The notes under the pieces were generated by a model. That model searched no databases and was not told the DNA's origin. It saw only the letters and a list, made by a program, of their open reading frames with translations. Shown piece by piece: positions 13,241 to 64,000 of a DNA stretch of 64,000 bases. A program made the translations under genes and the position numbers. The stretch covers positions 52,023 to 116,022 of the forward strand of contig JAUHXH010000006.1 in the NCBI GenBank assembly GCA_030427085.1, written 5' to 3'. The stretch's first letter is position 1; the number at the start of each line of letters is the position of its first letter. Source of the DNA: Gammaproteobacteria bacterium. Lineage in GTDB: Bacteria > Pseudomonadota > Gammaproteobacteria > Pseudomonadales > Halieaceae.

Positions 13241-13258
13241 TCGTACAACAGCGAGTGA

Positions 13259-15061: not shown

Positions 15062-15487
15062 TCACTTAGTGGGGACGTATATCCACCACTGCCCTTCGCT
15101 TTTCACCCATCGATAGTCCAAAGAACGGCTGTTCTTCACCCCCATGTGCGGAATGTCGTACTCAACGACCATACGCACTGAGCAGAGATCTTCTACATTA
15201 CACTCTACCTTGCCCACTTTGGCGGAGGTCCAGCGACTGGCACCCGCAATACGCGCATGATAGTGGCCGGTGGTAGCAAACTTGCGGTAGGCGGGGGTTG
15301 TGTACTCAAAAGCAGCTTCAAGATTTTTTGCCATCAGCGCATTTGCCCAGGCCTGCGCCCGCTCGCTGACCTGCTCCGATGGGGAGACTGGCTCAGACTG
15401 GCCACCACAGGCACTCAGTACAGCGATCAGCAAACTCAACCCTGCCAGTCGGGAACCGCGCAATTTTGCTACATTCATTTTAGTCAT
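15062..15487 (-). CDS. Small lipoprotein (about 141 aa) downstream of gspD
   Basis: The lipobox LLIAVLSAC|GG is followed by a compact domain of about 110 aa. The start is ambiguous (15502, 15487 or 15478); 15487 has GGAG 9 nt upstream. Confidence 0.7.
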   Translation of the reverse strand: MTKMNVAKLRGSRLAGLSLLIAVLSACGGQSEPVSPSEQVSERAQAWANALMAKNLEAAFEYTTPAYRKFATTGHYHARIAGASRWTSAKVGKVECNVEDLCSVRMVVEYDIPHMGVKNSRSLDYRWVKSEGQWWIYVPTK

Positions 15488-15559
15488 TTCCAACTTCTCC
15501 ATACCTCGAGCCCGGGGTTCACGCCGCCAGACTCGTCCTATCACGATTCTGACAGCCTG

Positions 15560-34748: not shown

Positions 34749-35027
34749 TCAGCGCGGCTCCTTTTGCAACAGGTGGACAAAGGTACCTTCAATTTCACCG
34801 GAATACAGCAGGGCGTGACCGGATTGCTGAGAGAACACGCGAAAATCCCGCACCGAGCCCTGGTCAGTCGCCACCACAAGCAGTCGCCCACCGACGTCCA
34901 GCCCATTCAGTGCGCGCTTGGCTTTCAATAATGGCATGGGGCACAGCATTCCGCGCGCATCCACTTCGGTTGCGAGCTGGTCGTGCCACTGTTGGGGTAG
35001 GTATTCTTCTGACAAGCTCTGGTGCAT
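34749..35027 (-). CDS. TusA-family sulfurtransferase-like protein
   Basis: DARGMLCPMPLLKAKRAL contains the CPxP active-site motif. The start was taken at ATG 35027, giving 92 aa. Confidence 0.75.
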   Translation of the reverse strand: MHQSLSEEYLPQQWHDQLATEVDARGMLCPMPLLKAKRALNGLDVGGRLLVVATDQGSVRDFRVFSQQSGHALLYSGEIEGTFVHLLQKEPR

Positions 35028-37697: not shown

Positions 37698-37964
37698 GGG
37701 ACTACGCGAGCTAACTCAAGAAGGGCCGCCCAGTTTACCACACAAAAGTGTGACGAGCGCCACGTCACACTTTCCGAGGCTGGCCGGTTTTGATGTCGAA
37801 TTAAGGGCTTCCACACCCGTTGGTTTGCCAGTATATTAGTTCGACAATAATTGCTGCTTATATTTTAAGCAGAACAAGCGTGTTCCCAGAACTACCAACC
37901 GGACTCAGGGGAGGGTCACGGTGGCAAAGTGCCCGGCAACAGGGCATGTGATTCTGGGCAACCA

Positions 37965-39710
37965 ATGGGACCAAGGGGCACTGTGGATCAACGACATACC
38001 GTCCTCGTTATATCCGAGAATGCAGCGGATCATCTGATTCTGGCTGAAAGCCTGGAACGCGCCCTCCCCGCGCGGTTTACCCTCGCCAATAACGAAAGCC
38101 TGGAACGCCCCCTGGAAGCACTGCTGGACCCGTCAGTGGATGCCGTGATTGTTTCCCATGGGCCCGAAACCGATTATCTGCTTCGACTCGCGCAGAAAAA
38201 CGGATCCTGCACTCCAATTATCGTATTGCTGGAAGAGCCCGACATGCGACTCGCCGCAGAATTAACCGAGGCTGGCGCCCAGGACTACCTGGTTCGCGGC
38301 CAACTGCAAGACCACCTGATCCATCGCATTCTCGACTACAGCATTCAACTCAAGCAGGCGCGCCTGCAGATCCAGCAATTGTCGAGCCGCGACGGCCTGA
38401 CCGGCACCCTGAACCGGGCCGGCTTTCGGAGCCACGTTGCTCGGGCCATGGAGCGCTCCGAGCGCTACGGTTTTCGCACTGCCCTGCTGTACCTCAACAT
38501 CGACCAGTTCAATTTCATCAACGAACAATTTGGTGAAACCAGCGGTGATAGCCTGATTCAGGAAATGGCCGATCGCCTGTCGAACAAGCTGCGTAATTCT
38601 GACTGCATCGCCCGTATTGGCGGCGACGAATTTGCAGTGGTGCTGGAGGACGTGTCTGACGACGACAATGTCGAGGCCATTGCCAGTAAAATGCTGGACG
38701 CCATCTCCGAACCGCTGGCCCTGGAAAACCAGAAGATCAGTGTAAACGCCTCCATCGGCGCCGCGGTATACCCAGATGATGGCCGCGCCTTCGGCGAACT
38801 GGTCAACGGTGCGCGCAGCGCAATGCAACAGGCCAAGGCAGCGCAGGGTGGCAAGTTTGTTCGGTACAGCGAGCAGATCAGTTTTAATGAAGACGGCAAC
38901 ACCGCAATTGCTGCCGAATTGCGTAATGCCCTTCGCCGGAATGAATTTGGACTGCACTTCCAACCTCGCATCGACCTCTCTACCGGGCAGCTCGTGGGCG
39001 TAGAGGCCTTGTTACGTTGGCTGCATCCTACGCGCGGAATCATCCTGCCCGGCGAATTCCTGGCGGAATGCGAAACCATGGGTCTGATGAAAACCATCGG
39101 TTACCAGGTTATACAACAAGCCTGTAACGCTCTTAAATGGCTGGACGAACAGGGCATGGAACATGTCGTGGTCGCGGTCAATATCTCCTTCTCACAATTT
39201 CAGGACGAGCGCTTTGTCGACATCGTTACGGACATCGTCAAGCGAGCTCGCATCGACCCTAACCGGCTGGAATTCGAACTCACCGAAAGCACCATCCTCA
39301 AGAACGCCCACGACCTGAAACCACGGCTTGAGGCCCTGCGCATGATGGGCATTTCGTTCTCCCTGGACGATTTCGGCACCGGCTTCTCACAGCTCAGCCA
39401 CATCACCGAACTACCCATTTCCGCGCTGAAAATTGACGCGGGGTTTGTGCGCGATGTACCCACTAACGCCCAGCAGGTTGCCGTGTGCAAAATGATAATC
39501 GACATGGCTGAACGGCTGGACATGCTGGTAGTCGCTGAAGGCGCCGAGAGTCGGGAGCAAGTGCGCTTCCTGATGAGCCAGGGATGCCATCAGGTACAGG
39601 GCTTTTACTACAGCCCCGCCATCCCGTTGGAGCGCCTGCCCCGATTTGTTCAGGAGCAGCGCTTCCGACGTCGCGACTTCTCCCGCCACCTGCTCGGCGA
39701 CGGCGCCTGA
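37965..39710 (+). CDS. GGDEF-EAL protein with a degenerate receiver-like N-domain
   Basis: RIGGDEFAVV and EALLRW are intact. The N-terminal CheY-like fold has SEN where the acidic pair is expected. The start could be ATG 37965 or GTG 37929. Confidence 0.85.
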   Translation: MGPRGTVDQRHTVLVISENAADHLILAESLERALPARFTLANNESLERPLEALLDPSVDAVIVSHGPETDYLLRLAQKNGSCTPIIVLLEEPDMRLAAELTEAGAQDYLVRGQLQDHLIHRILDYSIQLKQARLQIQQLSSRDGLTGTLNRAGFRSHVARAMERSERYGFRTALLYLNIDQFNFINEQFGETSGDSLIQEMADRLSNKLRNSDCIARIGGDEFAVVLEDVSDDDNVEAIASKMLDAISEPLALENQKISVNASIGAAVYPDDGRAFGELVNGARSAMQQAKAAQGGKFVRYSEQISFNEDGNTAIAAELRNALRRNEFGLHFQPRIDLSTGQLVGVEALLRWLHPTRGIILPGEFLAECETMGLMKTIGYQVIQQACNALKWLDEQGMEHVVVAVNISFSQFQDERFVDIVTDIVKRARIDPNRLEFELTESTILKNAHDLKPRLEALRMMGISFSLDDFGTGFSQLSHITELPISALKIDAGFVRDVPTNAQQVAVCKMIIDMAERLDMLVVAEGAESREQVRFLMSQGCHQVQGFYYSPAIPLERLPRFVQEQRFRRRDFSRHLLGDGA

Positions 39711-39800: not shown

Positions 39801-41615
39801 ATGCCCCCACAGCACGAAACACAATTGAGCCCGAAAATTCTGGTCAGCGACGACGACCTGAATGTTCGTCTGCTCACACGCCAATGCCTGGAAGCGGAGG
39901 GCATGACGGTTGTGGAAGCGGCCAGCGGGCCGGAAACGCTGGACATTTTTGTACGCGAGCGCCCTGACCTCGTTTTCCTCGACGTTGAAATGCCGGGCAT
40001 GAGCGGCCTGGAAGTGTGCCGCCGCATCCGCCAAATGCCGCAGGGCGAGTCTATTCCCATTATGATCGTCACCGGCTCCGATGACCGACAGTCCATCGAC
40101 CAGGGCTTCGACGCTGGCGCAACCCAATACAAAACCAAACCTGTAAACTGGTCGCTTCTCGGTCGCGATGTGCAGTACATGCTGCGCGCCAGCCACGCGT
40201 TTAATTCCCTGAAACGTCAGGAATACCGACTGCGCTACCTGGCGTTCTACGACCCTTTGACCAGCCTACCCAACCGGCGCAGCTTTAACGAACAACTCAA
40301 TCGGATTCTTAAACGCAGCCAGCGGCATGACAGCAGTGCGGCGCTGTTATTTATCGACCTGGATCACTTTAAACGCATCAATGACTCAATCGGCCATGGC
40401 CGCGGCGACCGCCTGCTGGTGGAAATTGCCAAACGACTGACCAATGAACTGCGCGAAGACGACGCGATCAACTATTTCAGTGATCACAGTGACAACGACG
40501 CAGAGCGAAATACGGAAATAGCCCGCCTGGGTGGCGATGAATTCACCGTTGTATTGTCCGACATCGACGACACTACGGCCGTGGAGTCTGTGGCGCGCCG
40601 AATTCTGAATTCGCTGTCGCAACCCATCCCGCTGCAATCACACAATCCAGTTGTAACGCCAAGCATCGGGATTGCACTGTACCCACAGGATGGCACCGAC
40701 CCCGACACACTGGTCCGCAATGCGGACACAGCAATGTACGCCGCCAAAGCAGATGGACGTGCCTGCTATCGTTTCTACAACGAAGAAATGAATGCGCGTG
40801 CGGTCGAGCAGCTCAAAATGGAGGAGGAGCTGCGACACGCACTTCACTTCAATGAATTGGAGCTGCGCTACCAGCCCCAGATCGACACCCGCACCGGCAA
40901 AGTAGTAAGCATGGAAGCACTGGTGAGATGGAAGCATCCGGAACGCGGCATGGTGCCCCCCAACGAATTCATCCCTGTGGCAGAGCGCACTGGCCTGATC
41001 ATTGAACTGGGCGAATGGGTAATGGCCGAAGCGGCCAAGCACTGCATTTATTGGGACAGCCTGGGCTTGAGCGATTTCCGCGTAAGCGTGAACATATCGC
41101 CGCTGCAGTTTAATCAGCCTAACATTACCGAGGTCGTTCGCGACTTCCTGGACCGCTCCGGGCTGCCGCCAGAGCGACTGGAACTCGAACTGACCGAAAG
41201 CGCCATCATGACGGACGCGGAGATCAACATCGAGAAACTCAGGCAACTGAAAGCCCTGGGACTGGCATTGGCGGTGGATGACTTCGGCACCGGTTATTCG
41301 TCACTGAGCTATCTGAAGCGTTTCCCGATCAACACACTTAAAATTGACCAGAGCTTCATAGCCGACCTTTCCAGCCCGGACGGCGCAGCAATTATTGACG
41401 CCATCATCGCCCTGTCGCGCACACTCAGCCTACGCGTTATCGCAGAGGGTATCGAAACAGCAGAACAAATGCGCTACATGGTCGACAAGCAATGTGACCT
41501 GTTGCAAGGCTATTACTTCGCGCGCCCCCTGTATCCCGAGGATGTTCCCAATATGCTCAAGGAGGACTTCCTGGACTACTTTGCACCTTCGATCGGCTCC
41601 TTGACCCGAGCCTGA
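39801..41615 (+). CDS. Response regulator with GGDEF-EAL output
   Basis: The REC domain is canonical (ILVSDDD..VFLDVEMPGMSG..TGSDD). RLGGDEFTVV and EALVRW are both present. Confidence 0.9.
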   Translation: MPPQHETQLSPKILVSDDDLNVRLLTRQCLEAEGMTVVEAASGPETLDIFVRERPDLVFLDVEMPGMSGLEVCRRIRQMPQGESIPIMIVTGSDDRQSIDQGFDAGATQYKTKPVNWSLLGRDVQYMLRASHAFNSLKRQEYRLRYLAFYDPLTSLPNRRSFNEQLNRILKRSQRHDSSAALLFIDLDHFKRINDSIGHGRGDRLLVEIAKRLTNELREDDAINYFSDHSDNDAERNTEIARLGGDEFTVVLSDIDDTTAVESVARRILNSLSQPIPLQSHNPVVTPSIGIALYPQDGTDPDTLVRNADTAMYAAKADGRACYRFYNEEMNARAVEQLKMEEELRHALHFNELELRYQPQIDTRTGKVVSMEALVRWKHPERGMVPPNEFIPVAERTGLIIELGEWVMAEAAKHCIYWDSLGLSDFRVSVNISPLQFNQPNITEVVRDFLDRSGLPPERLELELTESAIMTDAEINIEKLRQLKALGLALAVDDFGTGYSSLSYLKRFPINTLKIDQSFIADLSSPDGAAIIDAIIALSRTLSLRVIAEGIETAEQMRYMVDKQCDLLQGYYFARPLYPEDVPNMLKEDFLDYFAPSIGSLTRA

Positions 41616-41637: not shown

Positions 41638-43650
41638 ATGCCCGGAAAATCTCACATTGCACGCTTGGTTTCGAACCTTCTGTTGACGGGACTGCTCGCC
41701 GCGTGCACGGAACAACCACACGAACTCCCACAGGAAGTCATGCTACAGGGCAACAACGCCCCGGCCATGCGTGAGTTGGTGGAAGTGGCTGGCGGTACCG
41801 TCACCCACGACCTACCACTGATCAACGCCGTGGGAGCGCAACTCACACCGACGCAACTTCGCGCTGTCATCACGTCACCGCAGGTGATCCGCCACATCAC
41901 CGACGTCTCGATCGGTGAATCAGAAACACCAGAGGACACCGAACCGCCGGAGCCCGGCATGCCCTGCGACATCGCCGGCGCGCTGGAACTGGAGTTCGAG
42001 AAAGAAGCACTGACGTGGTCGATTTTCAACAAACGTGCAAAGCCGGGGCGGCTCCAACAGCTACAAATGACGTGGCCCGTCGCACTGGGCAAGCTGGAGT
42101 CACTGACGCTGAATGGCGAGTCGCTGGCAAGTCTTGAAGCGCAGAGGCGTGGCAGCCTGAAGCTGGGACTGGACGACTTCGCCCAGCACCAACTCCCCAA
42201 CGGCGAACGATCGGTACTGTTAGCACGTTTTTCAGAGAATCCTCCCAAGCGCCTGCAAGCGGACTACTCCATCGCACTGGAATTCGACGGGGACTGTGGC
42301 ACGGCACTGGTCCCGGGCTACCCCCACAATGCCGAGGACTCCTATTTCCCCACGGTAGTGGGTGCGGACCAACTGCACAGACACGGTGTAACCGGCGATG
42401 GCGTTACCGTCGCCATTCTCGACTCCGGGCTGTGGGATCACCCACAACTCACCCTCGATACCCGGGATCAACCCCGCGTGCTCAGCCGCTTTGACGCTAT
42501 CACCAACCAGTCCGTGGAGACTGCGTTCGATGAAAGCGGACACGGCACCCACATGGCCAGCGTTATCGTAAACAGCGGCCCCACAACCAATCCCGACCGG
42601 GCCCCGGGCAGCTTCAAAGGCATCGCGCCCGACGCCAACCTGGTGGTGGTTAAGGCGTTCAATGTGGAAGGCCAGGGCAATTACCTGGACATCGTTCGCG
42701 GCATTCAATACGTGGTGGACCACCGCGAAACCTTCGACATCCGGGTGCTCAACCTGTCCTTTGCGGCGCGCCCACGCTGGCACTACTGGGAGGACCCCAT
42801 CAACCAGGCACTGATGCACGCCTGGGCAGCCGGCATCACTATTGTCGCCGCCGCCGGCAATGAGGGGCCGGACGTGATGAGTATGGGCTCCCCCGGCAAC
42901 CTGCCCTACGCCATCACTGTGGGGGCGATAACTGACTCCTGGACACCCGATGACCGCAGTGACGACTACATCCCGGACTTTTCATCCCGCGGCCCTACAC
43001 CAGCCGCTCACATCAAGCCCGACCTGGTAGCACCCGGCGGCCATATCACAGGGCTTACCCGGCCCGACTCAACCCTCCTGCGGGAAAACCCCGAATATCA
43101 ATTGCCAGGCGGTGAGTTTGTACTTACTGGCACATCGCAGGCGGCCGCCGTAGTCAGTGGAATGGTGGCCCTGCTGTTGCAACTACAACCCGAATTGAGC
43201 CCGGACGACGTGAAGTGCAAGTTCACCAGCAGCGCCGAGCCTGCCATTGGCGCCGACGGGCTGCTGGCCTACAGCCCCTTCCAGCAAGGCCACGGCTACG
43301 CCAGCGTGACTCGCGCCATCACTCTGGGAGAAACCGGTTGCGCCAACCAGGGACTCGACATCGCCCGCGATATTGCAGGGCATGATCACTTTGAGGGGCC
43401 CGCCATCATTGACGACCATGGCAACACCAGCCTACCCGGCCTGGAGCAAGTCTATCGCGACACACCGCAGGCCAAAGGATTCAGCACATCTCGTAAATGG
43501 GGCGTAAAAGCCCACATCGAACGCCCCGGCTACCAATGGGGAGCCCAAGGCCAGGCCCCGGACGCTCGCTTCGACTGGGAAAGGCTCTACCAGGCCGAGA
43601 AAGCCAAAATGGACGCACTGGCGCGAAAACAGGCCCCGACAGCAGAATAA
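41638..43650 (+). CDS. S8 (subtilisin-family) serine peptidase, lipoprotein
   Basis: The lipobox is LLTGLLAAC|TE. The catalytic triad contexts are AILDSG, HGTHMASV and GTSQAAAVVSG. An N-terminal I9-like propeptide region is present. Confidence 0.9.
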   Translation: MPGKSHIARLVSNLLLTGLLAACTEQPHELPQEVMLQGNNAPAMRELVEVAGGTVTHDLPLINAVGAQLTPTQLRAVITSPQVIRHITDVSIGESETPEDTEPPEPGMPCDIAGALELEFEKEALTWSIFNKRAKPGRLQQLQMTWPVALGKLESLTLNGESLASLEAQRRGSLKLGLDDFAQHQLPNGERSVLLARFSENPPKRLQADYSIALEFDGDCGTALVPGYPHNAEDSYFPTVVGADQLHRHGVTGDGVTVAILDSGLWDHPQLTLDTRDQPRVLSRFDAITNQSVETAFDESGHGTHMASVIVNSGPTTNPDRAPGSFKGIAPDANLVVVKAFNVEGQGNYLDIVRGIQYVVDHRETFDIRVLNLSFAARPRWHYWEDPINQALMHAWAAGITIVAAAGNEGPDVMSMGSPGNLPYAITVGAITDSWTPDDRSDDYIPDFSSRGPTPAAHIKPDLVAPGGHITGLTRPDSTLLRENPEYQLPGGEFVLTGTSQAAAVVSGMVALLLQLQPELSPDDVKCKFTSSAEPAIGADGLLAYSPFQQGHGYASVTRAITLGETGCANQGLDIARDIAGHDHFEGPAIIDDHGNTSLPGLEQVYRDTPQAKGFSTSRKWGVKAHIERPGYQWGAQGQAPDARFDWERLYQAEKAKMDALARKQAPTAE

Positions 43651-44037
43651 CCCCCCGCCACCCCAGAGTGCGATTCACACGCGCTTACAGACCACACTGA
43701 TCTACACAAGCCATTACAGAGCCAAATGCACTAACCACGCGCAGTGTTCTGCCCGCCTGATCGAAAATGATGTAATTGAAAGTGGGAAAAATGCGCATAA
43801 ATGCGGATTTTATTCAGTTTGGGAATAACAAAAGGGCCTGCTAATAAGTTTTTATAACAAGAGGGTATAAGTTACTCATAGCTACCCCAATTAGGTTATA
43901 TAAATCCCTTCATTGCTTATCGCACCGCGCCTATAACGTTGTCAAGCATCCAAATTTAGAGATGTGGGGCGGGTCTCAGAACACACTTCCCGCGGAATAC
44001 TCTGAAAAGAATTTGCTAGTTGGAAGGCGTGACAATT

Positions 44038-44634
44038 ATGAAAATACTCAATCTCGGATTCAGAACCATCCTCACTGTTGTTGTAGGAACATGTACGGCA
44101 AGCGCCTTGGCGCAAGAGGCCCAGAGTACTCAATCAGTGTTGGTGACAGCAGTGTCACATTCAATAGCAACCGGTACCTCATATGACTCCGTAGAGGTAA
44201 CAAACGGTTTCAAATGGTCTGGAACTGCGAGCACTCCTGCAACCGCTCAACACTGGGACAACAACAACGCGCCTGATGCCTCCGGTTTCAAGTGGCTGTC
44301 AGTCAACTCGTCGACTGGCCAAGACTCTGCTAGAGAAGCCGGCTCAGCATTAGCAACGAGTGAACATCAGACCGCCGGATTCAAGTGGAACAGCAATTCA
44401 GAATCGAACCAAACGGGTTTTAAGTGGGGCATTCGCTCTACTGCCGAGCAGGCTGGCTTCAAATGGGGCATCCGATCCACCGCCGATCAATCAGGATTCA
44501 AGTGGGGTATTCGATCCACCGCTGATCAGTCAGGGTTCAAATGGGGTATCCGATCCACCGCCGACCAGTCCGGATTCAAATGGGGTATCCGATCTACCGC
44601 CGATCAATCAGGATTCAAGTGGGGCATCCGATAG
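44038..44634 (+). CDS. Secreted tandem-repeat protein (10 GFKW motifs; five and a half 13-aa GFKWGIRST[A][DE]Q[SA] units at the C-terminus)
   Basis: ATG 44038. The Sec signal is MKILNLGFRTILTVVVGTCTASALA|QEA. The ORF ends exactly after GFKWGIR. I recognise no similar family. Confidence 0.75.
   Translation: MKILNLGFRTILTVVVGTCTASALAQEAQSTQSVLVTAVSHSIATGTSYDSVEVTNGFKWSGTASTPATAQHWDNNNAPDASGFKWLSVNSSTGQDSAREAGSALATSEHQTAGFKWNSNSESNQTGFKWGIRSTAEQAGFKWGIRSTADQSGFKWGIRSTADQSGFKWGIRSTADQSGFKWGIRSTADQSGFKWGIR
44416..44631 (+). repeat. 39-bp in-frame tandem array (5 full units plus a 21-bp terminal unit)
   Basis: The units start at 44416, 44455, 44494, 44533, 44572 and 44611. Units 2-5 encode identical peptides but differ at 3-6 third-codon positions. 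Confidence 0.95.
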
Positions 44635-44833
44635 CTTCCACCGAAATACCCAGCGTCATACAGCCATCTGCTCCAGGCTCGGAGCGGATGGCCCATACCG
44701 ACGAACAACCACGTGATTAATCTTTGATTTTCCCGTGAGCACTGGGACAGCCCCTTATCCCAACCTCTAGTGCTCACCCGCAACATCATCTAACATGCTG
44801 ATCAACTAAGAGTAAAAGACAGCATTCCTTCCG

Positions 44834-47800
44834 ATGTGGCGAGTCTACAAGCTGGTCATCCTGTTAACCCTTTGGGGTGCGTGTTCCGCGTGGGGCGTAT
44901 CGCCCAGAAATTTCCATCTGAGTGTGGCGCCCTTCACTGCCGAATTCACCTCGCAAACTATTCTCGACACCTATCAAGACCGTCAGGGGTACCTGTGGTT
45001 CGTCGCGCAAGAGGGTATCTACAAATACGATGGATTCAAAACAAAGAACTTTCTGTACAACTTAGAAGACGACCAATCCATAAGCAGCAATTCTCCTAGC
45101 GGAATCGCTGAGGATTACTTAGGCAGGGTCTGGATCGCCACCCGCGGTGGAGGGCTCAATCTTTATAATGCTGCTGACGATACATTCTCGTCTTTACAGC
45201 GGTCTGGAAACACACTGTCATCCACTGAACCATTCGATAACTTCATACTCTCACTGTTCGCCGACTCTAATGGCGATCTATGGCTAGGTCATCAAAATGG
45301 CTTTAGTCAGTTTGACGTTAGCGAACGTCAGTTTACGCACTACAGATTCAGCACTCCCGATGTTCAGTTTGAGGTCAACGGCTTCGCTGAATCGTCCGAT
45401 GGCATCATCTGGATTGCCACATTTGGCGCGGGGCTTCTCTCAGTAGACCCAAAATCTGGAGAATTCAAACCTGGCTTTGGCTCGGAGATGTCATTCACTG
45501 ACAGCGTTTCGCTCAATATCTCGTCCCTCATTGTCGACAAGCACAACAACCTTTGGTTAGCACATAGAAACTCGGGGGTATCAAAACACAACCTCGAGAC
45601 GGGAGATGCAGAAGTATTCAGGCAATCGTCACTTGACGAATTTTCGATCTCTTCAGATTCAACAATAAAAATTTATGAAGACCAGGGTGGGACGATCTGG
45701 GTTGCTACGGAAGATGGACTTAATGTTCAACGTAGCGGTGGAAATGGCTTTATGACCTTTCATGAGGGGAACTCCCAGATCCCCAACAACAAAGTTAGAA
45801 GCATCTTCCAAAGTTCAGATGGAACATACTGGATCGGCACACAATACCAACTAGGCTTTGGCCGTGTCTCGCAATTCAGCCACTACACGTTCGAAGAAAG
45901 CGTCTCTAGCAATTCAGTGAATACATTCTCTACGACGCCGGATAATCGACTTTGGGTGGGCACGGATGATGGTTTGAAAGTAATCGATTTGCCCATTTCC
46001 TCAGAAGAGGAATTTATCTACAAAAACATAAATGAAAGCACCTACCCAACTCGAATCAGTTCATCAAGAGTAATGAGCATTCTGGGTGAGCGTGACTCAT
46101 TATGGGTTGGTACCGCAGACTCCGGGTTGAATCACATAGATCTGACTACGGGTGGTGTTCAAAATTTTCAAAGTAGCAGGCGAGATCAATCCTCTTTAAG
46201 TGCGAACGGCGTTACATCCATTCTCCGTGACAGTGCAGGAAGCTTATGGATAGGCACCTGGGGAGGAGGACTAAACAGACTAAAAGATGATGGTTCCTCG
46301 TTTGAATCCTTCACGCACGACCCAATCGATCAATATTCTATTAGCAGTAACCTCGTAATTGCACTTTATGAAGATAGTAATGGATCGTTGTTTATTGGTA
46401 CAGCTGATGGCATAAACAGATTTGATAGGAATACAAACACTTTCTCCAGGTTCCAGCACGATCCTTACAACAAGAGTAGCCTTTCCAGCCGAATGGCGTG
46501 GACTTTCCATGAAGACTCAAATGGCAGGCTCTGGGTAGGAACTGATAGCGGAGGACTCAACTATTGGACGAAGGAAGATAGAGCAGCGGAAGTAGACCAC
46601 TTTTACCATCTTGCAGATCGCTCACTAATTCCTAGCTCAAGCATATATGGAGTAACAAGCGATTCGAGTGGAACACTATGGATATCTCACAATAGAGGTA
46701 TAACTCGAATAGACAGTACTCTGAATGAATTTAAAACCTATGACTCAACCGACGGCCTGCAAGATAATGAGTTTAATCATGGAGCAATTCACTCGCTCGA
46801 AAACGGCACAATGTTATTCGGAGGAAACAGAGGCTATAACTTGATCGATCCATACGAAATTTCTGATGTCACAAAAGCTCCAACCGTCCAGATTACTGGC
46901 ATCAGTATTTTGAATCAGCCAACTAACTTTGATGTCCCCGTTTACGACCTTCAAACTCTGACAATCGACCACAGAGACTACCTAGTTTCGTTCAATTTCG
47001 CTGTCATGGACTATGTCGCGCCTGAGCACAATCAGTATAAGTACATCCTGGAAGGCTTCGATCCGAACTGGCTAATTTTGCAAGAGTCTCGATCAGCTAC
47101 TTACACAAATTTGCCCTCAGGAAACTACATACTAAGAGTTTCCGGAGCAGGCGCGGATGGCGTATGGAATGAAAGCGGGGCTACCTTACATATCAACGTT
47201 CTTCCACCTCCATGGAAAACCTGGTGGGCTTATAGCGCTTACGCATTCCTGATACTGGTAGTTGCAACATATCTCGCAGCTGCCCAACGCAGGAAAGTAC
47301 TTAATGCGCTAAGTAGGCAACGAGAACTTGAAAAGAAGGTCGAGGAGAGAACTCACGATCTAGTGGAGGCTCGCCGCCAAGCTGAGGATGCGAACGCAGC
47401 AAAGTCCGAATTCCTTGCAACGGTGAGCCACGAGATTCGGACACCCATGCACGGTATCTTGGGTATGAATGAGCTTCTTCTACACACCGAGCTTGACGAA
47501 GAGCAGCGCAAATTCGCGTCAGCTGCAAAATCTAGTGGAGAAACGCTACTATCGTTAATGAACGCTATTCTCGACTTCGCAAAGGTGGAAGCCGCCAAAG
47601 TAGAAGTGGAGTCCATTTCTTTCGATCTTCGCGAACTAATTGAGACGACTTGCTATCTTCAAGGGGAACCAGCATCGAGGAAGGGCTTGGTATTGAACAA
47701 CATACCAGATCCAACGCTGCCAAGCGAAGTTACTGGCGATCCGGATAAGATTCGCCAGGTTTTGATGAACTTGATAACTAACGCAATAAAATTTACGCCA

Positions 47801-49294
47801 TCAGGGAACGTCACAGTTCGTTCAACATTGGGCCAACAACCGAGTTCTACTGAAAAATACACTTTGGCTTTTCAGGTAGAGGATGAAGGAATTGGCATGA
47901 CCGAAGAAACTGTCGCCAAAGTTTTTGATCCTTTCACCCAGGCTGATTCAAGCACCACTCGTCAATTCGGTGGCACCGGGCTTGGACTTGCAATCACCAA
48001 GAATTACGTCGAATTAATGGGTGGCAAAATTGACGTCTATTCTCAGCCGGGGGTTGGAACAAAGATAGCAGTGGAAATCCCTGTCACGGTAAGCAAACCG
48101 TTTTACTCTGTGAATGCGGTTTATGATCAATTAACCGCCCGAGTGATATCAACCAACTCACTTACCGCAGAGATGATTCAAGTCCATCTGATCTATTTCG
48201 GTGTCAATTCGATAATTACCACAAGTCTTGATGACTTTTTCAGCGCCCCAGATGTGGATCTTTATATCGTAGACCTATCCTCAATGGATGAAGCGACATG
48301 TCAAGAATTCCGACTGCGTTGTACTAGGGATGTGGAGTCGCGAGTATTGGCATTAGCAAGGGTGCATACGAAAGACCCTGAGAATATGGTCCCACATCAA
48401 AGACGCATTACTCTTCCCATCTCAACCAAACAGCTTCAGCAGGAAATAAATTACATTGTGGAAGGAGCCCCCACCTGTCATAAGGAAGTCGAGGCCACAC
48501 CACGAGTTCCACAAGGTGTTCAGGCCCACATACTTCTTGCGGAGGACCTCGAGACAAATCAGAAAATTGCGACTGAGATGTTGCAGATGATGGGACATAG
48601 AGTAACGTTAGCCGCGGACGGCTTAGAGGCAATCAAACTATTCGAACGCGACAGGCCAGATTTAATTTTTATGGACTGCCAAATGCCATTGATGGATGGG
48701 TTCACGGCTGCCAAGAAAATACGCGAAACGGAGAAATTAAAAAATTGGCCACATATTCCGGTAATCGCTTTAACAGCTGGCACTAGCGACCATGATCAGA
48801 AAATGTGCATTTCCGCAGGGATGTCTGATCACATTTCAAAACCATTTAGTGTGGAACAAATATCAAGCGTACTCGAACGTTACTTAGGCATCAAAAGTGA
48901 ATATTCAACTATTAAACAACAATCAAAGAGCTCATTTATAGTCGATGCCATAGTCAACAAAGCGGCTGTTGATAACATTGCCGAAGTAGAACGCTTGTCC
49001 GGAAACATAATATTTCCAACAGTTTTGAACGAGTACCATCATCAATTCGAAATTAAGGTTTCCGACCTCAACCAAGCGCTTGAAATCGCTGACGAGTTAG
49101 TTTTCGCACGAACTAGTCATGCCATAAAATCTATGAGCGCGAATGTGGGCGCTGAACAGGTTATGAAGCTGAGTTCAGAAATGGAAAAAAGATCCAGGGA
49201 AGGAGATTTGCGTGAAATGAAAAACGAAATCGAGAAACTTGAAGCCGCATATAAAGCTTTTTCTAGCGCTATACAGCTACACGTCAAACAGTAA
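44834..49294 (+). CDS. Hybrid sensor histidine kinase: periplasmic double beta-propeller plus Y_Y_Y, TM, HisKA-HATPase, degenerate REC, REC and Hpt
   Basis: It has a signal peptide and repeated WIGT/WVAT..GL propeller blades. The Y_Y_Y block is [25 protein letters not shown]. The H-box is [10 protein letters not shown]. HATPase elements are NAIKFT, DEGIGM and GGTGLGLAI. The REC reads [14 protein letters not shown] and the Hpt reads [12 protein letters not shown]. Confidence 0.9.
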
Positions 49295-49300
49295 ACTCTA

Positions 49301-52300
49301 ATGCGAAGAATCACACTCGCGTTAATGAGCGCAGTACTGTGCTGTTCGGTCACTAGTCTTAATGCCTTCGGATCAGAGCTTGAATTTCATGTAGTACCCT
49401 CTGAACTGGCAAATGGGCTTAGGCAAACTTCCGTCTGGGAAGTAATGCAAGATAACTCTGGCTTCCTCTGGGTCTCAAATTTTGCTGGCCTCACCCTCTT
49501 ATCAGGTGAGGGCCAATATGAATACACTCCGAACGAAAATCCAGATTCTAAATATTTCCTCCCAAGCAGACGTATTTTCAAAATACATCAGGACAATGCC
49601 GAGAGAATCTGGGTGATTACTAATGATGCTGGCGTGTATCGGAGTAATCACACAAACGGTGGCTTTGATTTAATCGCCCAAATTAACGATTCGACTTTCC
49701 CAATGGATGGGCTCACAAGTGCGTTAGTTGATTCCAACAATACGCTCTGGCTAGGACACAACTCCCAAGGCATCCGGTCCATAAACCTCGACTCTAAAAT
49801 TGCCTTCACTCCCGAAAATAGGCATGCAGGCCCAGAAATTGTTGAGATAGTGGAGGATGGCAGAGGTTTCATTTGGTTCGTTCGGCAGGACACAACGGTT
49901 CTTAGATACCATCACGACCAAGACGGAAGATTTGAGTTACTTGGACCAGAAATTTGCTCCAACCCATCCGGTGTACCACTTAGAGCTTTTAACGTTTCAA
50001 GTGAGAGTATTTTAATCCAATTCAACACCGGGAAAATTTTTGAGATCTCCCAAAAGGATTTTAAGTGTGAACTGCTGACCATAGAAAATGCCGGTCCTAT
50101 AGCAAACGCTTTAATCAACGACATGGTTAATTATGGCAACAATCTTCAAATCTTCGCCACTGATCATGGAATTATGGTGTATCGAGGCCGTAATTTAATT
50201 CATCACTTTCATTCTGAAAATTCGTCCCTGAACGATAACGAAATTGGAACACTGAGCGCCCCGGAGTCAGGTCCGATCTGGATTGGCACTCACAATGGGC
50301 TTTTTAAACTGATCGAAACTCCTTTTAAGTTATATAACCAGCAAAAAAGTGGGTTCTCCGGCCCCGTAGTAGCTTTTGCAGAGTCTCCTCTCGGTCTTTG
50401 GGTTGCCACATACAATGGCTTGTACCTACGAGATAGTAAATCTGGGCAGCATGCTTCTGTCCGCGATTTATTCCCAGACGCCGACCTCACGAACAAGCAA
50501 ATTATGTCGTTGGCCTATAGAGAAAACAATCTATGGGTAGGATATCGAGCTAACGGCCTGGAAATTCTCAACACAACGAATGGTAGTGTCACAAGATTTT
50601 CTTCTAATTCTTCACCGCCGCTTTCCTCTGACAACATCACCACGATTTATCCGCTCGGGAACAACCTTACTTTGATCGGAACTTACGGGGAAGGCCTGAA
50701 TATACTAGATACTACTCGCGGGTCGATAGAGCATCTAAATGCTGAGCAAGGAAACGGCTCTATCTCTGGAAATAATGTATTGGCGATGACCGAATTCTCG
50801 GCGGGAAAAATGTTAGTTGGGACCGAGCAGGGATTAAACGTTCTTGACTTACATACCCAACGGTTTAGCTTCGATGCCACATCAACTACAGCCACACCCT
50901 TTGAGACTGTACAAGTTTGGGCGATAACTTCTGACTCGACGAACAATTATTGGATAGGAACGCGCGACAGTGGCCTACTGCGCTTGTACACACCTAAAGA
51001 CTCCCAAATTAGCTTGTTACTTGAAAAAATTCAGCCGTCACAAGAGTTTCCAGTTCATACAGTTTTTTCTGCCCAAGTTGATAATCAGGACTACCTTTGG
51101 CTAACGACTCACCTAGGGCTGTGTAGAGCAAAACTAACTGCAGATATATTGCACTGCTACGATGCCGGTCATGGCCTGCAGGGTAGGGAGTTCGACTATG
51201 GGGCCTCCCTGAAATTACGGAATGGCAATTTAGTTTTTGGCGGGAGTTCCGGATATAACGAGTTCAATCCTGAGAAAATTGAGGAGGGTGCAGACCTCCT
51301 GCACCTAAATTTTACAGAGATCCAAATCAGAGGTAGTTCCAGATACAACCCACTTCAGATGAAAAACCGAAAGAGAATCAAATATGCGTACACTGACAAT
51401 GTCGTAGCTTTCTTCTTTTCCGGAATGTCCAATGCGGGTGATACGACAAAAACCTTTAGGTACAAACTGAGCGAACTGAATGAAGACTGGCGGATTTCCA
51501 CCGGGTCAGCCACCTTCACCAACCTCCCCCCGGGCACCTACACCTTCGAAGTACAAGGCGCCAATTCAGCCGGCACCTGGAATCACGACGGCGCCACATT
51601 AGATCTGATCGTACACACTCCCCCCTGGAGAACGGTATGGGCATATTGGATCTACGCCGGCATGTTCCTTACGTTTCTGTGGATTATGCGGCGCGCTTAC
51701 GATGCGATTGGTCAAGTTGCGCACGCTACTGAGCACGCGGAGCGAATGGAGGAAACGGCCACGCTGGCTATGGATCAGTTGCAGGATCAAATGCAAGTAC
51801 AGACTGACATGGCGGACGCGCTACAGGAATACTCTGAGCTCAACATCAATCTAATTCAAAATGTGCTGTCCTACTACTCAGAAAAAGAATCTGAATCACC
51901 TACCGCACAAGAGCTTCGTGCGCGCTGCACGCTTCGCTTGCATACGCTGCACTTGCTTGATTCCTGCATCTATCATCACGGCGCTCTACTCTATGTGAAC
52001 ATGCACGACTTCTCAGAGCGTGTTATCGATGACCTCCTGGAACGGCATGGGCTCGATGAAGAAGCAGTTATTGTCACCAACGATGTAACAGGCGAGCTAT
52101 TCCCGGCGGAGACGGGCAGCCTGCTAGCACTGATCCTCTACGAGTTGCTCGAAAACTGTTTCCAACACGCATTTCATGCGCAAAAAACTGTCAATTTCAT
52201 CATGCTGCGTCTAAACAAGAGTGGCTATGATGCTACAGATCAGCCTGTCTTTGCGCTCGAGGTTGCCGACAATGGCCCGGGCGTTCACGCTGATGAAATC

Positions 52301-52420
52301 CCGGCGCTTATGCAAGGCCCGGGCATGCGGTTTGTGAAATCACTAGCCGAGCGTATCGATGCCTCCGTGCATGTTGATGGCAATAATGGGCTGGACGTTG
52401 AGATATCACGGTCAGTGTAA
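49301..52420 (+). CDS. Sensor kinase-like protein: periplasmic double beta-propeller plus Y_Y_Y, TM, HisKA_2-like dimerisation region without an obvious phospho-His, and HATPase
   Basis: It has propeller blades and a Y_Y_Y block (FRYKLSELNEDW..FTNLPPGTYTFEV), followed by a TM segment. The C-terminus LALILYELLENCFQHAF..VADNGPGV..GPGMRFVKSLA is HATPase-like. It starts 6 nt after the previous gene. Confidence 0.8.
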   Translation: MRRITLALMSAVLCCSVTSLNAFGSELEFHVVPSELANGLRQTSVWEVMQDNSGFLWVSNFAGLTLLSGEGQYEYTPNENPDSKYFLPSRRIFKIHQDNAERIWVITNDAGVYRSNHTNGGFDLIAQINDSTFPMDGLTSALVDSNNTLWLGHNSQGIRSINLDSKIAFTPENRHAGPEIVEIVEDGRGFIWFVRQDTTVLRYHHDQDGRFELLGPEICSNPSGVPLRAFNVSSESILIQFNTGKIFEISQKDFKCELLTIENAGPIANALINDMVNYGNNLQIFATDHGIMVYRGRNLIHHFHSENSSLNDNEIGTLSAPESGPIWIGTHNGLFKLIETPFKLYNQQKSGFSGPVVAFAESPLGLWVATYNGLYLRDSKSGQHASVRDLFPDADLTNKQIMSLAYRENNLWVGYRANGLEILNTTNGSVTRFSSNSSPPLSSDNITTIYPLGNNLTLIGTYGEGLNILDTTRGSIEHLNAEQGNGSISGNNVLAMTEFSAGKMLVGTEQGLNVLDLHTQRFSFDATSTTATPFETVQVWAITSDSTNNYWIGTRDSGLLRLYTPKDSQISLLLEKIQPSQEFPVHTVFSAQVDNQDYLWLTTHLGLCRAKLTADILHCYDAGHGLQGREFDYGASLKLRNGNLVFGGSSGYNEFNPEKIEEGADLLHLNFTEIQIRGSSRYNPLQMKNRKRIKYAYTDNVVAFFFSGMSNAGDTTKTFRYKLSELNEDWRISTGSATFTNLPPGTYTFEVQGANSAGTWNHDGATLDLIVHTPPWRTVWAYWIYAGMFLTFLWIMRRAYDAIGQVAHATEHAERMEETATLAMDQLQDQMQVQTDMADALQEYSELNINLIQNVLSYYSEKESESPTAQELRARCTLRLHTLHLLDSCIYHHGALLYVNMHDFSERVIDDLLERHGLDEEAVIVTNDVTGELFPAETGSLLALILYELLENCFQHAFHAQKTVNFIMLRLNKSGYDATDQPVFALEVADNGPGVHADEIPALMQGPGMRFVKSLAERIDASVHVDGNNGLDVEISRSV

Positions 52421-52448
52421 TTGCCCGATAGGTGCTAGCTCCGGTCGA

Positions 52449-53207
52449 TTACTGTCCGTGAAAAACCGGGCTGCGCTTTTCTCGCTTGGCACGCAACCCT
52501 TCCGCCAGATCCTGTGAATTCTCGCAGCGTTTTATTAGTGCTTCAGCAGCCATCAGGTCAAGCTGGCCAGCGGCGGATTGTTCGATGACATTTTTCATGG
52601 CCTGCACAGACAAGGGAGCAAGGCTGGCCAGCTGCTTGGCGATTTGCGAGGCCCGAGCCTCCAATTTTTCCCGGTCTTCAGTGAAATCGAGGTAGCCCAG
52701 ATCGAGCAGCCCCTCATCGTCAAACTCTTCTGCCAGCATCAACAAACGCTTGGCTGGCCCAACACCCAACCGTTTAACAAAACGCTCGATACCATTAATG
52801 GGATAACACAACCCTATCGCCGCGGCAGGAACACGCAGGCGCATCCCTCGCACGCCCAGGCGAAAGTCACAACTTAGGGCGAGCTCACTCCCACCGCCGT
52901 AGGTGTTGCCATTCATCACACAGACCGTGGGAACCTTCACCGCAGCCAGCCTATCGGTCATGCGCTGAAAGGCGTTCCCGTCAATGGCGCCACTGTCCAT
53001 TTCGTCCAGGGCCGCCCCAGCACAAAATGTTTTCTCTCCAGCACCGCTCACCATCAGCACGCGGATATTTGGATCCTGATCAACTGCATCAAACGCCGCC
53101 TGCATGGCGTTGAGCTCTCGCGCCCCCAGGGAATTGTGTCGATCGGGCCGGTTAATCATTAAACGCGAAATCGGGCCATCCTGAGTGGTGACAATGGTAT
53201 TGGACAT
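52449..53207 (-). CDS. Enoyl-CoA hydratase/isomerase (crotonase) family protein
   Basis: RPDRHNSL..FCAGAAL..NGNTYGGGSELALSCD is the crotonase fold signature. Confidence 0.85.
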   Translation of the reverse strand: MSNTIVTTQDGPISRLMINRPDRHNSLGARELNAMQAAFDAVDQDPNIRVLMVSGAGEKTFCAGAALDEMDSGAIDGNAFQRMTDRLAAVKVPTVCVMNGNTYGGGSELALSCDFRLGVRGMRLRVPAAAIGLCYPINGIERFVKRLGVGPAKRLLMLAEEFDDEGLLDLGYLDFTEDREKLEARASQIAKQLASLAPLSVQAMKNVIEQSAAGQLDLMAAEALIKRCENSQDLAEGLRAKREKRSPVFHGQ

Positions 53208-62549: not shown

Positions 62550-64000
62550 TCAACTGATTTGTTCAACAATTCTTCTAATTAGGTCGCTGTCAATCCCCTG
62601 GCCTTCGTACTCCTCTGTCTCAATCAAGCTACCGGCATTACCCCCACCTTCGTTCATTGGGCAAATTCCATGAGCTATGTAATCCTCCCTTTTTCTACTC
62701 CACCGATCTCGATACTCTGGGTTCGACATCATTCCTAAATGTTCCCAGTAGTAGATTTCACCAGAATCGTCATCCTCAATGACAAAGTCGGGATATCGCT
62801 CTCTACCATTGATTACCACTCTTGGTTCGTAGACATAATCAATTCCGGCTGCGTGCAACTGATTGGCGATTATTACCTCAGACTTGGATCTGACCCGTTC
62901 ACCACGCGCGGTGCGATGGATTCGGTTGCAATCCAGCACGACCCGCCTGCTTCTCACCTCGATATCCACTGGCTGTGGGTCGGTGAAGAGGTTAGTCAAT
63001 CGCCTGGCAACCTCTGAGTAGTCGGGTGAACTGAATCGAGCGATATCTCGGAAGTCTCCCTGATGGAAGATTATGACTCTGTCTTTGTGACGAGTGAGAG
63101 CTGTGTAGAGCATTTCTCTGCTCAACAGACGACAAGGATTGGGGATCACGAGAAATGTCGTGCCGAATTCACTGCCCTGAGTCTTGTGCACCGTCAGTGC
63201 GTAAGCCAGTTCGAGAGGCGGGCTCGCATCTTCCCCTGAAAACTCTGATGCGAAATATTTGTACTGCGGGCTTCCTGATACATAGTCAGGACCGGTTTGT
63301 GCAGCAAGCTCGACTTCGAGGTGTTTGGGTATGCCCTTACCTTTCTGATATTTACCAACGACTATACCTATATCGCCGTTCGCGACATAGGGGCTCTCGA
63401 TATCCGGCCACACCTTACGCTTCGAGCTATTGCGCACGTTGATGACCTTGTCTCCCCAAAGGATGCCTTGAGGCCCCATTGGTTTGGGTATCTTTGGCCA
63501 GCGTTGTGCGGCCATGTGTTGTGCACGCTCGCGAAACTGGCTTTGCAGCCACCTATTGAGCGCGTCGACGCCGACTTGGGAGGCCCTTAGAGGGGACAAT
63601 ATTTGCCAGTTTTCTGCGCTTTCTGCGGCCCCTTTTCTCTCCTTCCAACGATTATTGAAGAAAACTCTATCAGGGTCTTTGTCCCAACGCTCACCACCTA
63701 TGCTGACACCAAACCCAGCCTCGTCTCTATCGGACTCCAATTCGAGCGCTCTTACCAACTCTTCGACGAGCTTGGCCTGAAGTTCATCGGGGGAAGACCA
63801 AGTGACCAACTTGAGTCCATCGACTTCACCGGCACTTATCTTGGTCCAGATTTCGTCGGCTGCGGGATCGAGCTCTCGACCGCTGAAATAGTCAGCAAAG
63901 AGGAGATCTTCTCTGGGCTTGTCGTCTCCGGAGAGTTGGCGACGTGGAATGGTAAGTGATGCGTACCCCGCTTGCACTCGCGGGAACGTGTGTGATTCCC
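62550..64000 (-). CDS. RecD/TraA-like SF1 helicase C-terminal part fused to a PD-(D/E)xK-like nuclease domain. The 5' end lies outside the window.
   Basis: The frame stays open to the window edge (..ESHTFPRVQAGY..). An SH3-like insert reads GDKVINVRN..VANGDIGIV. Helicase motif VI reads AYALTVHKTQGSEF. The C-terminus SKSEVIIANQL..YEPRV..YPDFVIED..YYWEHLGM fits a restriction-endonuclease-like fold. Confidence 0.75.
   Translation of the reverse strand, partial: ESHTFPRVQAGYASLTIPRRQLSGDDKPREDLLFADYFSGRELDPAADEIWTKISAGEVDGLKLVTWSSPDELQAKLVEELVRALELESDRDEAGFGVSIGGERWDKDPDRVFFNNRWKERKGAAESAENWQILSPLRASQVGVDALNRWLQSQFRERAQHMAAQRWPKIPKPMGPQGILWGDKVINVRNSSKRKVWPDIESPYVANGDIGIVVGKYQKGKGIPKHLEVELAAQTGPDYVSGSPQYKYFASEFSGEDASPPLELAYALTVHKTQGSEFGTTFLVIPNPCRLLSREMLYTALTRHKDRVIIFHQGDFRDIARFSSPDYSEVARRLTNLFTDPQPVDIEVRSRRVVLDCNRIHRTARGERVRSKSEVIIANQLHAAGIDYVYEPRVVINGRERYPDFVIEDDDSGEIYYWEHLGMMSNPEYRDRWSRKREDYIAHGICPMNEGGGNAGSLIETEEYEGQGIDSDLIRRIVEQIS

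Follow-up and report, generated by a model that had tools for sequence, protein, structure and literature searches.

Peptide signals derived from ribosomally made precursors are usual in Gram-positive bacteria and in eukaryotes and rare in Gram-negative bacteria. Several of the known multi-copy precursors go together with subtilisin-family proteases, as yeast alpha-factor does with Kex2, the cyanobactin precursor PatE with PatA/PatG, and the Phr peptides of Bacillus with subtilisin, Epr and Vpr. Unorthodox phosphorelay kinases paired with regulators of cyclic di-GMP (c-di-GMP) are likewise well known, including RpfC-RpfG and RavS-RavR of Xanthomonas, VieS-VieA of Vibrio and Lpl0330-Lpl0329 of Legionella, and hybrid two-component sensors of the BT4663 type, with a periplasmic double beta-propeller and a Y_Y_Y domain, are known from Bacteroides. 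Here we describe a locus of Halieaceae found in a stretch of 64,000 nucleotides (contig JAUHXH010000006.1 of assembly GCA_030427085.1; hereafter the window, to whose positions all coordinates refer), in which a gene for a secreted repeat protein (rep) stands between the gene of an S8-family subtilase and the genes of two propeller/Y_Y_Y sensors (HK1 and HK2), with a regulator gene of the REC-GGDEF-EAL type upstream of the protease. The low-GC region at 43690-52440, which a first-pass annotation took for an inserted island, makes up the downstream half of an envelope-signalling locus of five genes that has been inherited vertically and whose known signalling parts are grouped around rep, a member of an undescribed protein family.

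HK1 resembles the Bacteroides hybrid sensors in its periplasmic double propeller and Y_Y_Y domain, in its one transmembrane helix and in carrying HisKA, HATPase and receiver in one chain. Unlike them it has no C-terminal AraC (HTH_AraC) domain and ends in an Hpt domain, so that a separate regulator is needed; the locus has no polysaccharide-utilisation context (SusC/SusD, glycoside hydrolases), and where the Bacteroides sensors respond to an oligosaccharide the candidate cue here is a self-encoded peptide array. The HisKA-HATPase-REC-Hpt order, with a partner whose output is c-di-GMP turnover and which has no DNA-binding domain, is that of RpfC-RpfG, RavS-RavR, VieS-VieA and Lpl0330-Lpl0329, although the sensor domain differs and the locus adds a pseudokinase-like sensor and a protease/repeat-protein pair. 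All three residues of the BarA/TorS/ArcB-type relay are present in HK1, which nevertheless scores far below the equivalog cut-offs, its best partial NCBIfam matches being BarA (365 bits against a cut-off of 890) and TorS (359 against 676). With alpha-factor, PatE and Phr the repeat protein shares near-identical tandem units, an S8 protease that adjoins or acts on the precursor, a variable number of units and their basic closure; there is, however, no sequence homology, and the resemblance is one of logic only. Most members lack dibasic sites, there are neither cyanobactin recognition sequences nor modification enzymes, and the host is a Gram-negative gammaproteobacterium in which putative processing would follow a periplasmic route. 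The GacS/RetS/LadS multikinase networks also join a signalling-competent hybrid kinase to a second membrane sensor, one that may modulate the kinase without phosphorylating a regulator, and HK2 likewise has no conserved phospho-acceptor His; their sensor folds differ from those seen here, and HK1 and HK2, whose interaction is putative, are encoded by adjacent paralogues. The features of the locus are as follows.

39801-41615, forward strand: REC-GGDEF-EAL response regulator (Pfam Response_reg, GGDEF, EAL)
41638-43650, forward strand: S8 secreted pre-pro-subtilase (Pfam Peptidase_S8, 6e-49)
43883-43899, unstranded: palindrome T[AG]CCCCAA-N2-3-GGGG[TC]A, upstream of the rep promoter
43909-43937, forward strand: sigma-70-like rep promoter (TTCATT, 17 nt, TATAAC)
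44038-44634, forward strand: rep, secreted repeat protein of 198 residues, true start at the ATG at 44038
44416-44631, forward strand: tandem array of 39-nt units (Tandem Repeats Finder: period 39, 5.3 copies, 84% matches)
44663-44692, forward strand: GC-rich 12-bp hairpin between rep and HK1 (best 60-nt fold, dG -27.5)
44834-49294, forward strand: HK1, hybrid (unorthodox) sensor kinase (Pfam domains)
49301-52420, forward strand: HK2, second propeller/Y_Y_Y membrane sensor (Pfam Reg_prop, Y_Y_Y)
52449-52451, convergent: stop codon of the crotonase gene downstream of HK2

The five-gene locus and its low GC content

The order regulator, S8 gene, rep, HK1, HK2 and convergent crotonase gene, continuing with Tag, recurs in all eight metagenomic contexts examined and in 32 loci from about 30 species-representative genomes, two pairs of these loci (L016/L040 and L026/L038) being the contig ends of one broken locus each. 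All 32 come from Halieaceae except for a few metagenome-assembled genomes (MAGs) labelled to a higher rank only and one labelled Alteromonadaceae, and loci with a family-level label are almost all from Halieaceae. Altogether the same genes occupy the same chromosomal site in about 40 loci of at least 11 Halieaceae genera, which include Halioglobus, Pseudohalioglobus, Pseudohaliea, Congregibacter, Aequoribacter, Haliea, Chromatocurvus, Sediminihaliea, Parahaliea, Kineobactrum and strain NOR5-3; genes for TusA, M48 and NadA are syntenic upstream, and crotonase, Tag and TetR genes are its other neighbours. The first-pass annotation had proposed a self-contained cassette of three genes, moved as a unit into the site between the S8 and crotonase genes. 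Its description of the gene content of the stretch is accurate (the rep gene, two co-oriented sensor genes with a gap of 6 nt and a convergent crotonase gene), and it was right that no response regulator lies within 43690-52440, but the REC-GGDEF-EAL gene stands just upstream, its end 22 nt before the start of the S8 gene. Regulator and protease genes are invariant same-strand neighbours of the trio, the regulator always directly upstream of the S8 gene, and in L003 and L007 the two genes abut or overlap, which points to one operon. The cassette is accordingly not a self-contained set of three genes, and the order and site shared across genera do not fit an inserted or mobile element; conservation in all relatives, which the annotation itself had named beforehand as speaking against insertion, is what the comparison shows.

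Identity to the window copy declines in a fixed order from protein to protein.

Regulator: 74-82% in most loci, 62-63% in L015 and L041 (Aequoribacter-type)
Tag: 57-85%
S8 protease: 41-64%
Repeat protein: 30-57% over full-length matches
HK1: 30-43%
HK2: 23-29%

When genome pairs are ranked by distance (ranks only, not full trees), the nearest in the regulator prove to be the nearest in S8, HK1 and HK2 too, and identities that fall in step for four genes argue for vertical descent with gene-specific rates. Purifying selection acts on all four, dN/dS being 0.02-0.09 (regulator), 0.09-0.16 (S8), about 0.1 (HK1) and about 0.2 (HK2).

The dip in GC content that had suggested an island is real. GC is 0.466 across 43690-52440 and 0.580 in the remaining window, where 8.75-kb windows average 0.583 (standard deviation, sd, 0.014) and none lies below 0.557; in 1-kb steps it is 0.43-0.49 from 45 to 52 kb and about 0.59 elsewhere in the window. 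The drop is smaller than first estimated, 11-13 points as measured where roughly 15 had been given, and it is distributed unevenly, GC3 being the GC content of third codon positions.

Spacer between S8 and rep: GC 0.450
rep gene: GC 0.521 (mildly low)
Spacer between rep and HK1: GC 0.513
HK1: GC 0.456, GC3 0.461
HK2: GC 0.472, GC3 0.495

The 44 other open reading frames (ORFs) of the window have a GC of 0.583 +/- 0.026 and a GC3 of 0.683 +/- 0.061, from which HK1 lies about 4.9 sd lower in GC and about 3.6 sd lower in GC3; the dip is due mainly to HK1, HK2 and the spacers, the rep gene contributing far less. Its left edge is abrupt, at 43650-43700 and thus right after the S8 stop codon at 43650, and on the right GC recovers gradually within the final ~1 kb of HK2. 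A tetranucleotide scan, as the annotation had proposed, gives a strongly deviant raw profile, the correlation with the rest of the window falling from about 0.9 to about 0 across 44-52 kb. Once base composition is corrected for, the minimum is 0.62 against a mean of 0.79 (sd 0.085), only some 2 sd away and not beyond the deviation of an unrelated stretch at 11-16 kb. That stretch includes three ORFs of 242, 547 and 160 residues on the reverse strand (12214-15544), which have no Pfam match, adjoin a peptidyl-prolyl isomerase gene, have a GC of 0.52-0.56 and show the lowest composition-corrected tetranucleotide similarity in the window (0.58). The lowest GC outside the studied region (0.485) is found in the 1-kb window at 62-63 kb, mostly the upstream spacer of a UvrD_C_2/SF1-helicase-like gene (62553-63977, reverse strand; GC 0.515, GC3 0.54).

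The same deficit is found across the family. In 25 orthologous loci the GC of regulator plus S8 exceeds that of HK1 by 0.125 +/- 0.037 (minimum 0.055) and the GC3 deficit of HK1 is 0.22 +/- 0.08; the corresponding GC deficit is 0.106 +/- 0.034 for HK2 and just 0.026 +/- 0.039 for the rep gene. Every relative has the sensor deficit, at flank GC from 0.51 to 0.67, and the GC of HK1 rises with that of its host (slope 0.40, r 0.59). GC3 is even along HK1, at 0.42-0.51 in all orthologues. Relaxed constraint at weakly conserved sites is not supported as the cause because GC3 is flat along the gene and unrelated to the conservation of its segments (Spearman 0.17). The low GC is an old property of two fast-evolving sensor genes and not the mark of an insertion. 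The deficit could stem from codon selection or biased gene conversion being weaker at a locus that is little expressed and varies between strains; selection favouring AT-rich DNA is a further candidate.

A recent arrival, in which the S8-crotonase junction received a cassette of three genes from a donor of lower GC, would account for the 11-13 point drop, the abrupt left edge and the raw tetranucleotide profile. It does not account for the same genes at the same site in about 40 loci and at least 11 genera, for a sensor divergence that tracks the divergence of flanking genes, or for a deficit that recurs in every relative on backgrounds from 0.51 to 0.67, and the corrected k-mer signature is no further off than that of the unrelated 11-16 kb. 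Nor are the usual companions of an island present: as the annotation had noted, no integrase domain occurs among the genes (Pfam) and no tRNA anywhere in the 64-kb window, and no direct repeats bracket the region. With synteny, absent tRNA and repeats, and concordant divergence taken together, recent transfer is ruled out, and we leave it hardly any probability. An ancient acquisition is another matter, since as a statement about origin it can go with every functional reading: the sensor pair, or the module as a whole, could have entered the ancestor of Halieaceae from a low-GC lineage, for example as a Bacteroidota-type propeller sensor, and its lower GC set-point could have been kept by weak codon selection, weak biased gene conversion or selection for AT-rich, silencer-bound DNA. 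The periplasmic domains are closest to Bacteroides structures (4a2l: HK1 1.8e-89, HK2 4e-39), the repeat-protein family is found almost only in Halieaceae-labelled genomes, and the GC3 of HK1, uniform whatever the conservation of the protein, behaves as a regional property. Against this, synonymous sites are saturated between genera, so that a donor signature should have been erased; the covariation of HK1 and host GC fits an equilibrium offset better than a relic, and no donor lineage was identified. We regard such an acquisition as rather unlikely.

The repeat protein and its expression signals

The repeat protein of the window consists of a signal peptide, a region of about 90 residues with three degenerate GFKW motifs, and tandem 13-residue units that run to a GFKWGIR end; its array encodes GFKWGIR followed by five STA[DE]Q[AS]GFKWGIR units. 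These five units all differ in DNA sequence and give only two distinct peptides, with pS 0.57 and pN 0.027 between them (pN/pS 0.05; proportions of synonymous and non-synonymous differences per site). Between units within a gene overall, pS is 0.32 and pN 0.035 (pN/pS 0.11), synonymous differences being about ten times commoner per site than non-synonymous ones. Units that are free at synonymous sites and nearly fixed in peptide indicate that each copy is individually maintained by selection.

No Pfam, NCBIfam or PHROG family matches rep; DUF7211 is reached by one member only, and a literature search on the motif and DUF7211 returned nothing relevant, so that membership in a known family was set aside. 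A word-indexed search found 38 relatives, of which the named ones belong to Halieaceae/Halioglobus except two labelled Pseudomonadota only, and an exhaustive profile search of 1.84 billion cluster representatives returned 168 clusters, nearly all of 110-260 residues. All 36 members examined have a signal peptide. Behind it come about 60-100 residues, which hold two or three degenerate [FY][KR]W motifs and one short, conserved motif of helix-like character, and then 3 to about 20 tandem units. The consensus [S/N]-x-[A/S]-[D/E]-Q-x-[G/S]-[Y/F]-[K/R]-W-G-[I]-R was drawn from 228 units in 36 loci, in which Q5, W10, G11 and R13 are invariant; every unit closes on Arg, and in 26 of the 30 complete genes WG[IVLN]R forms the very end of the protein. 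Among distant variants (GSKWGRR, GNRWRR/K, GYRWRAQ, ASRWIIR) nearly all units close with one or two basic residues (RR, RK or R), which in GYRWRAQ and GSKWGRS stand one or two positions earlier.

AlphaFold2, run with a shallow alignment of 22 sequences, gives rep a pLDDT of 46 and no secondary structure in the repeats, a prediction that fits a disordered chain. A folded beta-barrel or solenoid was rejected on this lack of structure and on motif totals that are both odd and even, from 5 to 21. The family profile also picks up large proteins, namely phage tail proteins (phrog_6079) made of DLRWxVR repeats 13 residues long, together with an animal-type neuropeptide precursor with LRWGKR units. 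These side matches (P0238, P0242, P0249, P0253, P0267) have in common a hydrophobic-basic-Trp-x-hydrophobic-Arg pattern, and the phage proteins also a period of 13; they are probably convergent repeats. Short-read assemblies often break inside rep, their contigs ending in the array (L016/L040, L026/L038, L031, L036, L037, L039), so that MAG surveys will tend to under-count the family.

Upstream of rep, comparison of the loci brought out a palindrome and a promoter. The palindrome, 16-17 bp long and of the TACCCCAAAGGGGGTA type, reads TACCCCAATTAGGTTAT in the window, where its right half is degenerate, and it lies directly upstream of a conserved -35/-10 pair (43883-43937 in the window; L002-L039), the blocks cccTTCAtt and cTATAACg following at a fixed distance across genera. 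Some 30 of the 36 loci have it, at 121-225 nt (in most cases 130-175) before the rep ATG, and this distance holds whatever the length of the spacer (129-432 nt). In 14 loci the exact 16-mer occurs once per locus, at this position only, and no second site that could define a regulon was found in the loci; the single one-mismatch site in the window, at 34984-34999, is intragenic and probably due to chance. A generic scan for promoters and terminators gave counts equal to those of shuffled sequence and missed the rep promoter, which was found only by locus comparison. Downstream, a strong hairpin occupies the rep-HK1 spacer of nearly all orthologous loci, followed by a T-run in about a third (9-11 of the 30 listed) and without one in the window; it is probably a terminator or attenuator. 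From these signals rep is predicted to be its own transcription unit, separately promoted and terminated. A strong promoter for a small gene, an attenuating hairpin and weaker downstream genes are a common layout of precursor-peptide genes.

The regulator, the protease and the two sensors

The regulator has its receiver Asp (LDVEMP) and its GGDEF, EAL and DDFGTG motifs intact in all 36 orthologues, and is probably the output of a phosphorelay, through c-di-GMP synthesis or breakdown. Immediately before the regulator gene stands another GGDEF-EAL gene, one that lacks a receiver (37929-39707, forward strand); this gene is present in L001, L004 and L005 and absent in L002, L003, L006 and L007.

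The closest solved structures to the S8 protease are Tk-SP-type subtilases (9ues, 3afg; about 1e-43), and all 36 of 36 orthologues keep the Asp/His/Ser triad together with the oxyanion Asn. The N-terminus comprises a signal peptide and an I9-like pro-region. The window copy has a lipobox, LLAAC, in its signal region (41638-41706), but nearly all orthologues carry ordinary signal-peptidase-I sites, and the enzyme is therefore not a lipoprotein in general. Its NCBIfam match to PatA/PatG is weak (1e-11; 44 against 421 bits).

HK1 has a signal anchor, the periplasmic double propeller and Y_Y_Y domain, a transmembrane helix, HisKA, HATPase, a hypervariable linker, REC and Hpt. Its periplasmic part is matched by the sensor-domain structures 4a2l (1.8e-89) and 3v9f from Bacteroides. 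These are the structures of heparin-sensing BT4663 and its relatives. All 28 orthologues share H866 (HEIRTP), the receiver Asp (MDCQMP) and the Hpt His (aHaiKS), and HK1, as the only kinase near the regulator, would be its obvious partner. HK2 repeats the periplasmic architecture of HK1 (PDB 4a2l at 3.9e-39), and the predicted signal-anchor and transmembrane segments place the sensor domains of both proteins in the periplasm. The kinase part of HK2 is degenerate: HATPase_c scores 22 bits against a Pfam cut-off of 26, there is no receiver, and no His column is conserved in the region resembling a dimerisation and histidine phosphotransfer domain among 22 orthologues, the window copy having EYSELNINLIQNV where the His would be expected. 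That copy retains the N and G boxes (ELLENCFQHAF, DNGPG), which are lost in L004, L010 and L015. HK2 is thus probably a pseudokinase or co-sensor. Mean identity across the family is about 40% for HK1 and 24% for HK2, and a dN/dS of about 0.2 despite such divergence marks HK2 as a functional gene; a decaying pseudogene was rejected on this value and on full-length ORFs in all loci but one whose contig extends that far, the truncated copy of L005 being the other exception. In L026 (416-5600; MAG P01_H01_bin.14) HK1 is followed directly by the crotonase gene, HK2 is absent, and rep is split over two contig ends with L038. An ApbE (flavin transferase) gene lies between HK2 and crotonase in a subset of genera, identified by Pfam in L004 and L005 and presumed from a gap of about 1 kb in L010, L012, L019, L021, L022 and L033; it is absent from the window.

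A possible signalling mechanism and its alternatives

The anatomy of the locus suggests a pathway in which the repeat protein would be exported by the Sec pathway and the co-located subtilase would cut it at the basic residue that closes each unit, releasing from each molecule up to about 3-20 near-identical peptides of about 10-13 residues (...[DE]QxG[YF][KR]WGIR), with STADQSGFKWGIR and the 10-mer DQSGFKWGIR as candidate unit peptides. The released peptides, or the uncut multivalent chain, would bind the periplasmic propellers of HK1 and HK2. HK1 would then autophosphorylate, and the phosphate would travel from H866 by way of the receiver Asp and the Hpt His to the REC-GGDEF-EAL regulator, changing c-di-GMP, and HK2, without a phospho-acceptor His, may modulate HK1 as a co-receptor. 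A factor binding the palindrome would set rep transcription, possibly closing a feedback loop. The whole chain, from a multivalent ligand, cut or intact, through the propellers and HK1 to c-di-GMP, is our best explanation, tentatively held and somewhat short of probable; its strong version, in which the subtilase cuts an unmodified multi-copy peptide into units of about 10-13 residues that the propellers sense as an envelope or cell-to-cell signal setting c-di-GMP, we consider doubtful.

The suggestion of the first-pass annotation that the repeat protein is functionally tied to the propeller sensors gains support as a working hypothesis from adjacency, export and one disrupted locus: rep, HK1 and HK2 are all predicted to be exported or periplasmic and are always adjacent. 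It gains further support from the repeat protein itself, which has the look of a disordered array of many peptide copies under strong purifying selection. The disruption was found in L005 (10001-18696; contig_4491 of ERZ25039514, a 1.57-Mb contig of a long-read metagenome), in which rep is frameshifted inside the repeats, the propeller region of HK1 has more than 25 in-frame stops as well as frame changes, and HK2 has lost its first ~300 residues, while no damage is seen in the regulator, in S8 or in the genes of the 10 kb upstream. The three genes could have decayed jointly, which would lend limited support to a functional link. The proposed pathway is further favoured by the conserved gene order with concordant descent and a family-wide GC deficit of HK1, by precursor-like traits of rep (signal peptide, invariant unit residues, a fixed C-terminus, variable copy number, near-fixed peptides, predicted disorder, its own promoter and palindrome and a hairpin behind it), by the intact residues of protease, HK1 and regulator, and by the lack of CAZyme (carbohydrate-active enzyme) and TonB-receptor genes within 10 kb.

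Several points weigh against the proposed pathway. The evidence for it is all genomic, and adjacency alone is weak evidence of function because the unrelated flanks NadA, M48, TusA, crotonase and Tag are equally syntenic within the family; no copy of the module was found elsewhere in the genomes or clearly outside the family, the matches listed being filled by orthologues. The disruptions of L005 could be consensus error at a strain-variable region, and S8 stayed intact there though rep and the kinases did not. Most units close on a single Arg and not on a dibasic site, and the S1 pocket of the subtilase, judged by eye against subtilisin BPN', is presumably subtilisin-like and not kexin-like. 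The only ligands known to us for the propeller/Y_Y_Y fold are oligosaccharides. Conservation is far stronger in the peptide core than in the sensors, which is not what co-diversification of ligand and receptor would look like, and the lack of a dedicated outer-membrane exporter makes a cell-to-cell role uncertain.

Some of these points speak for other readings of the same genes. The sensors may respond to an external cue, most likely a glycan, with rep not their ligand but an envelope or surface protein, for instance one that uses its Tyr/Phe-Lys/Arg-Trp motifs for adhesion or polymer binding, or else no more than a gene that is regulated or happens to be adjacent. The match of double propeller and Y_Y_Y to the Bacteroides structures 4a2l and 3v9f favours such a cue, as do a one-family synteny shared by unrelated flanking genes, the greater conservation of the peptide core, and a rep gene with its own promoter and terminator that does not share the GC deficit (0.026 +/- 0.039). 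Yet there are no glycan-utilisation genes nearby, neither CAZyme nor TonB-receptor genes occurring within 10 kb of the locus in the contexts examined, rep is predicted to be disordered and without a fold, an end on the same residue in 26 of 30 genes together with 3 to about 20 units is hard to reconcile with a structural protein, and the trio may have decayed jointly in L005; we think this reading improbable, though worth keeping in view. Alternatively, signalling may be gated by proteolysis, the intact chain acting as a multivalent clamp or inhibitor on the propellers until the subtilase or foreign proteases remove it, so that the system would report periplasmic or extracellular proteolysis and not peptide concentration. 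This draws on the same anatomy as the best explanation; the degenerate N-terminal [FY][KR]W motifs suggest that the motif itself matters and not just the released unit, a multivalent disordered chain could match many-bladed propellers, and the locus has no outer-membrane exporter. The exact Arg C-terminus and the basic closure of every unit point instead to released units, nothing separates activation from inhibition, and gating of this kind appears distinctly unlikely.

As for genome composition, the locus is a clean case of core genes that keep a GC deficit of 10-15 points throughout a family, and it cautions against taking a compositional dip alone for horizontal transfer. As for function, we know of no peptide ligand for the propeller/Y_Y_Y sensor class, and if the strong version of the signalling pathway proposed here is true, it would be a pro-hormone-like form of peptide signalling in a Gram-negative bacterium and would provide the first proteinaceous ligand for Reg_prop/Y_Y_Y sensors. 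The hypothesis is compact, setting a precursor, a protease, a receptor, a co-receptor and a c-di-GMP output side by side in abundant coastal marine bacteria, and it can be tested in the culturable carriers Congregibacter, Chromatocurvus and Pseudohaliea.

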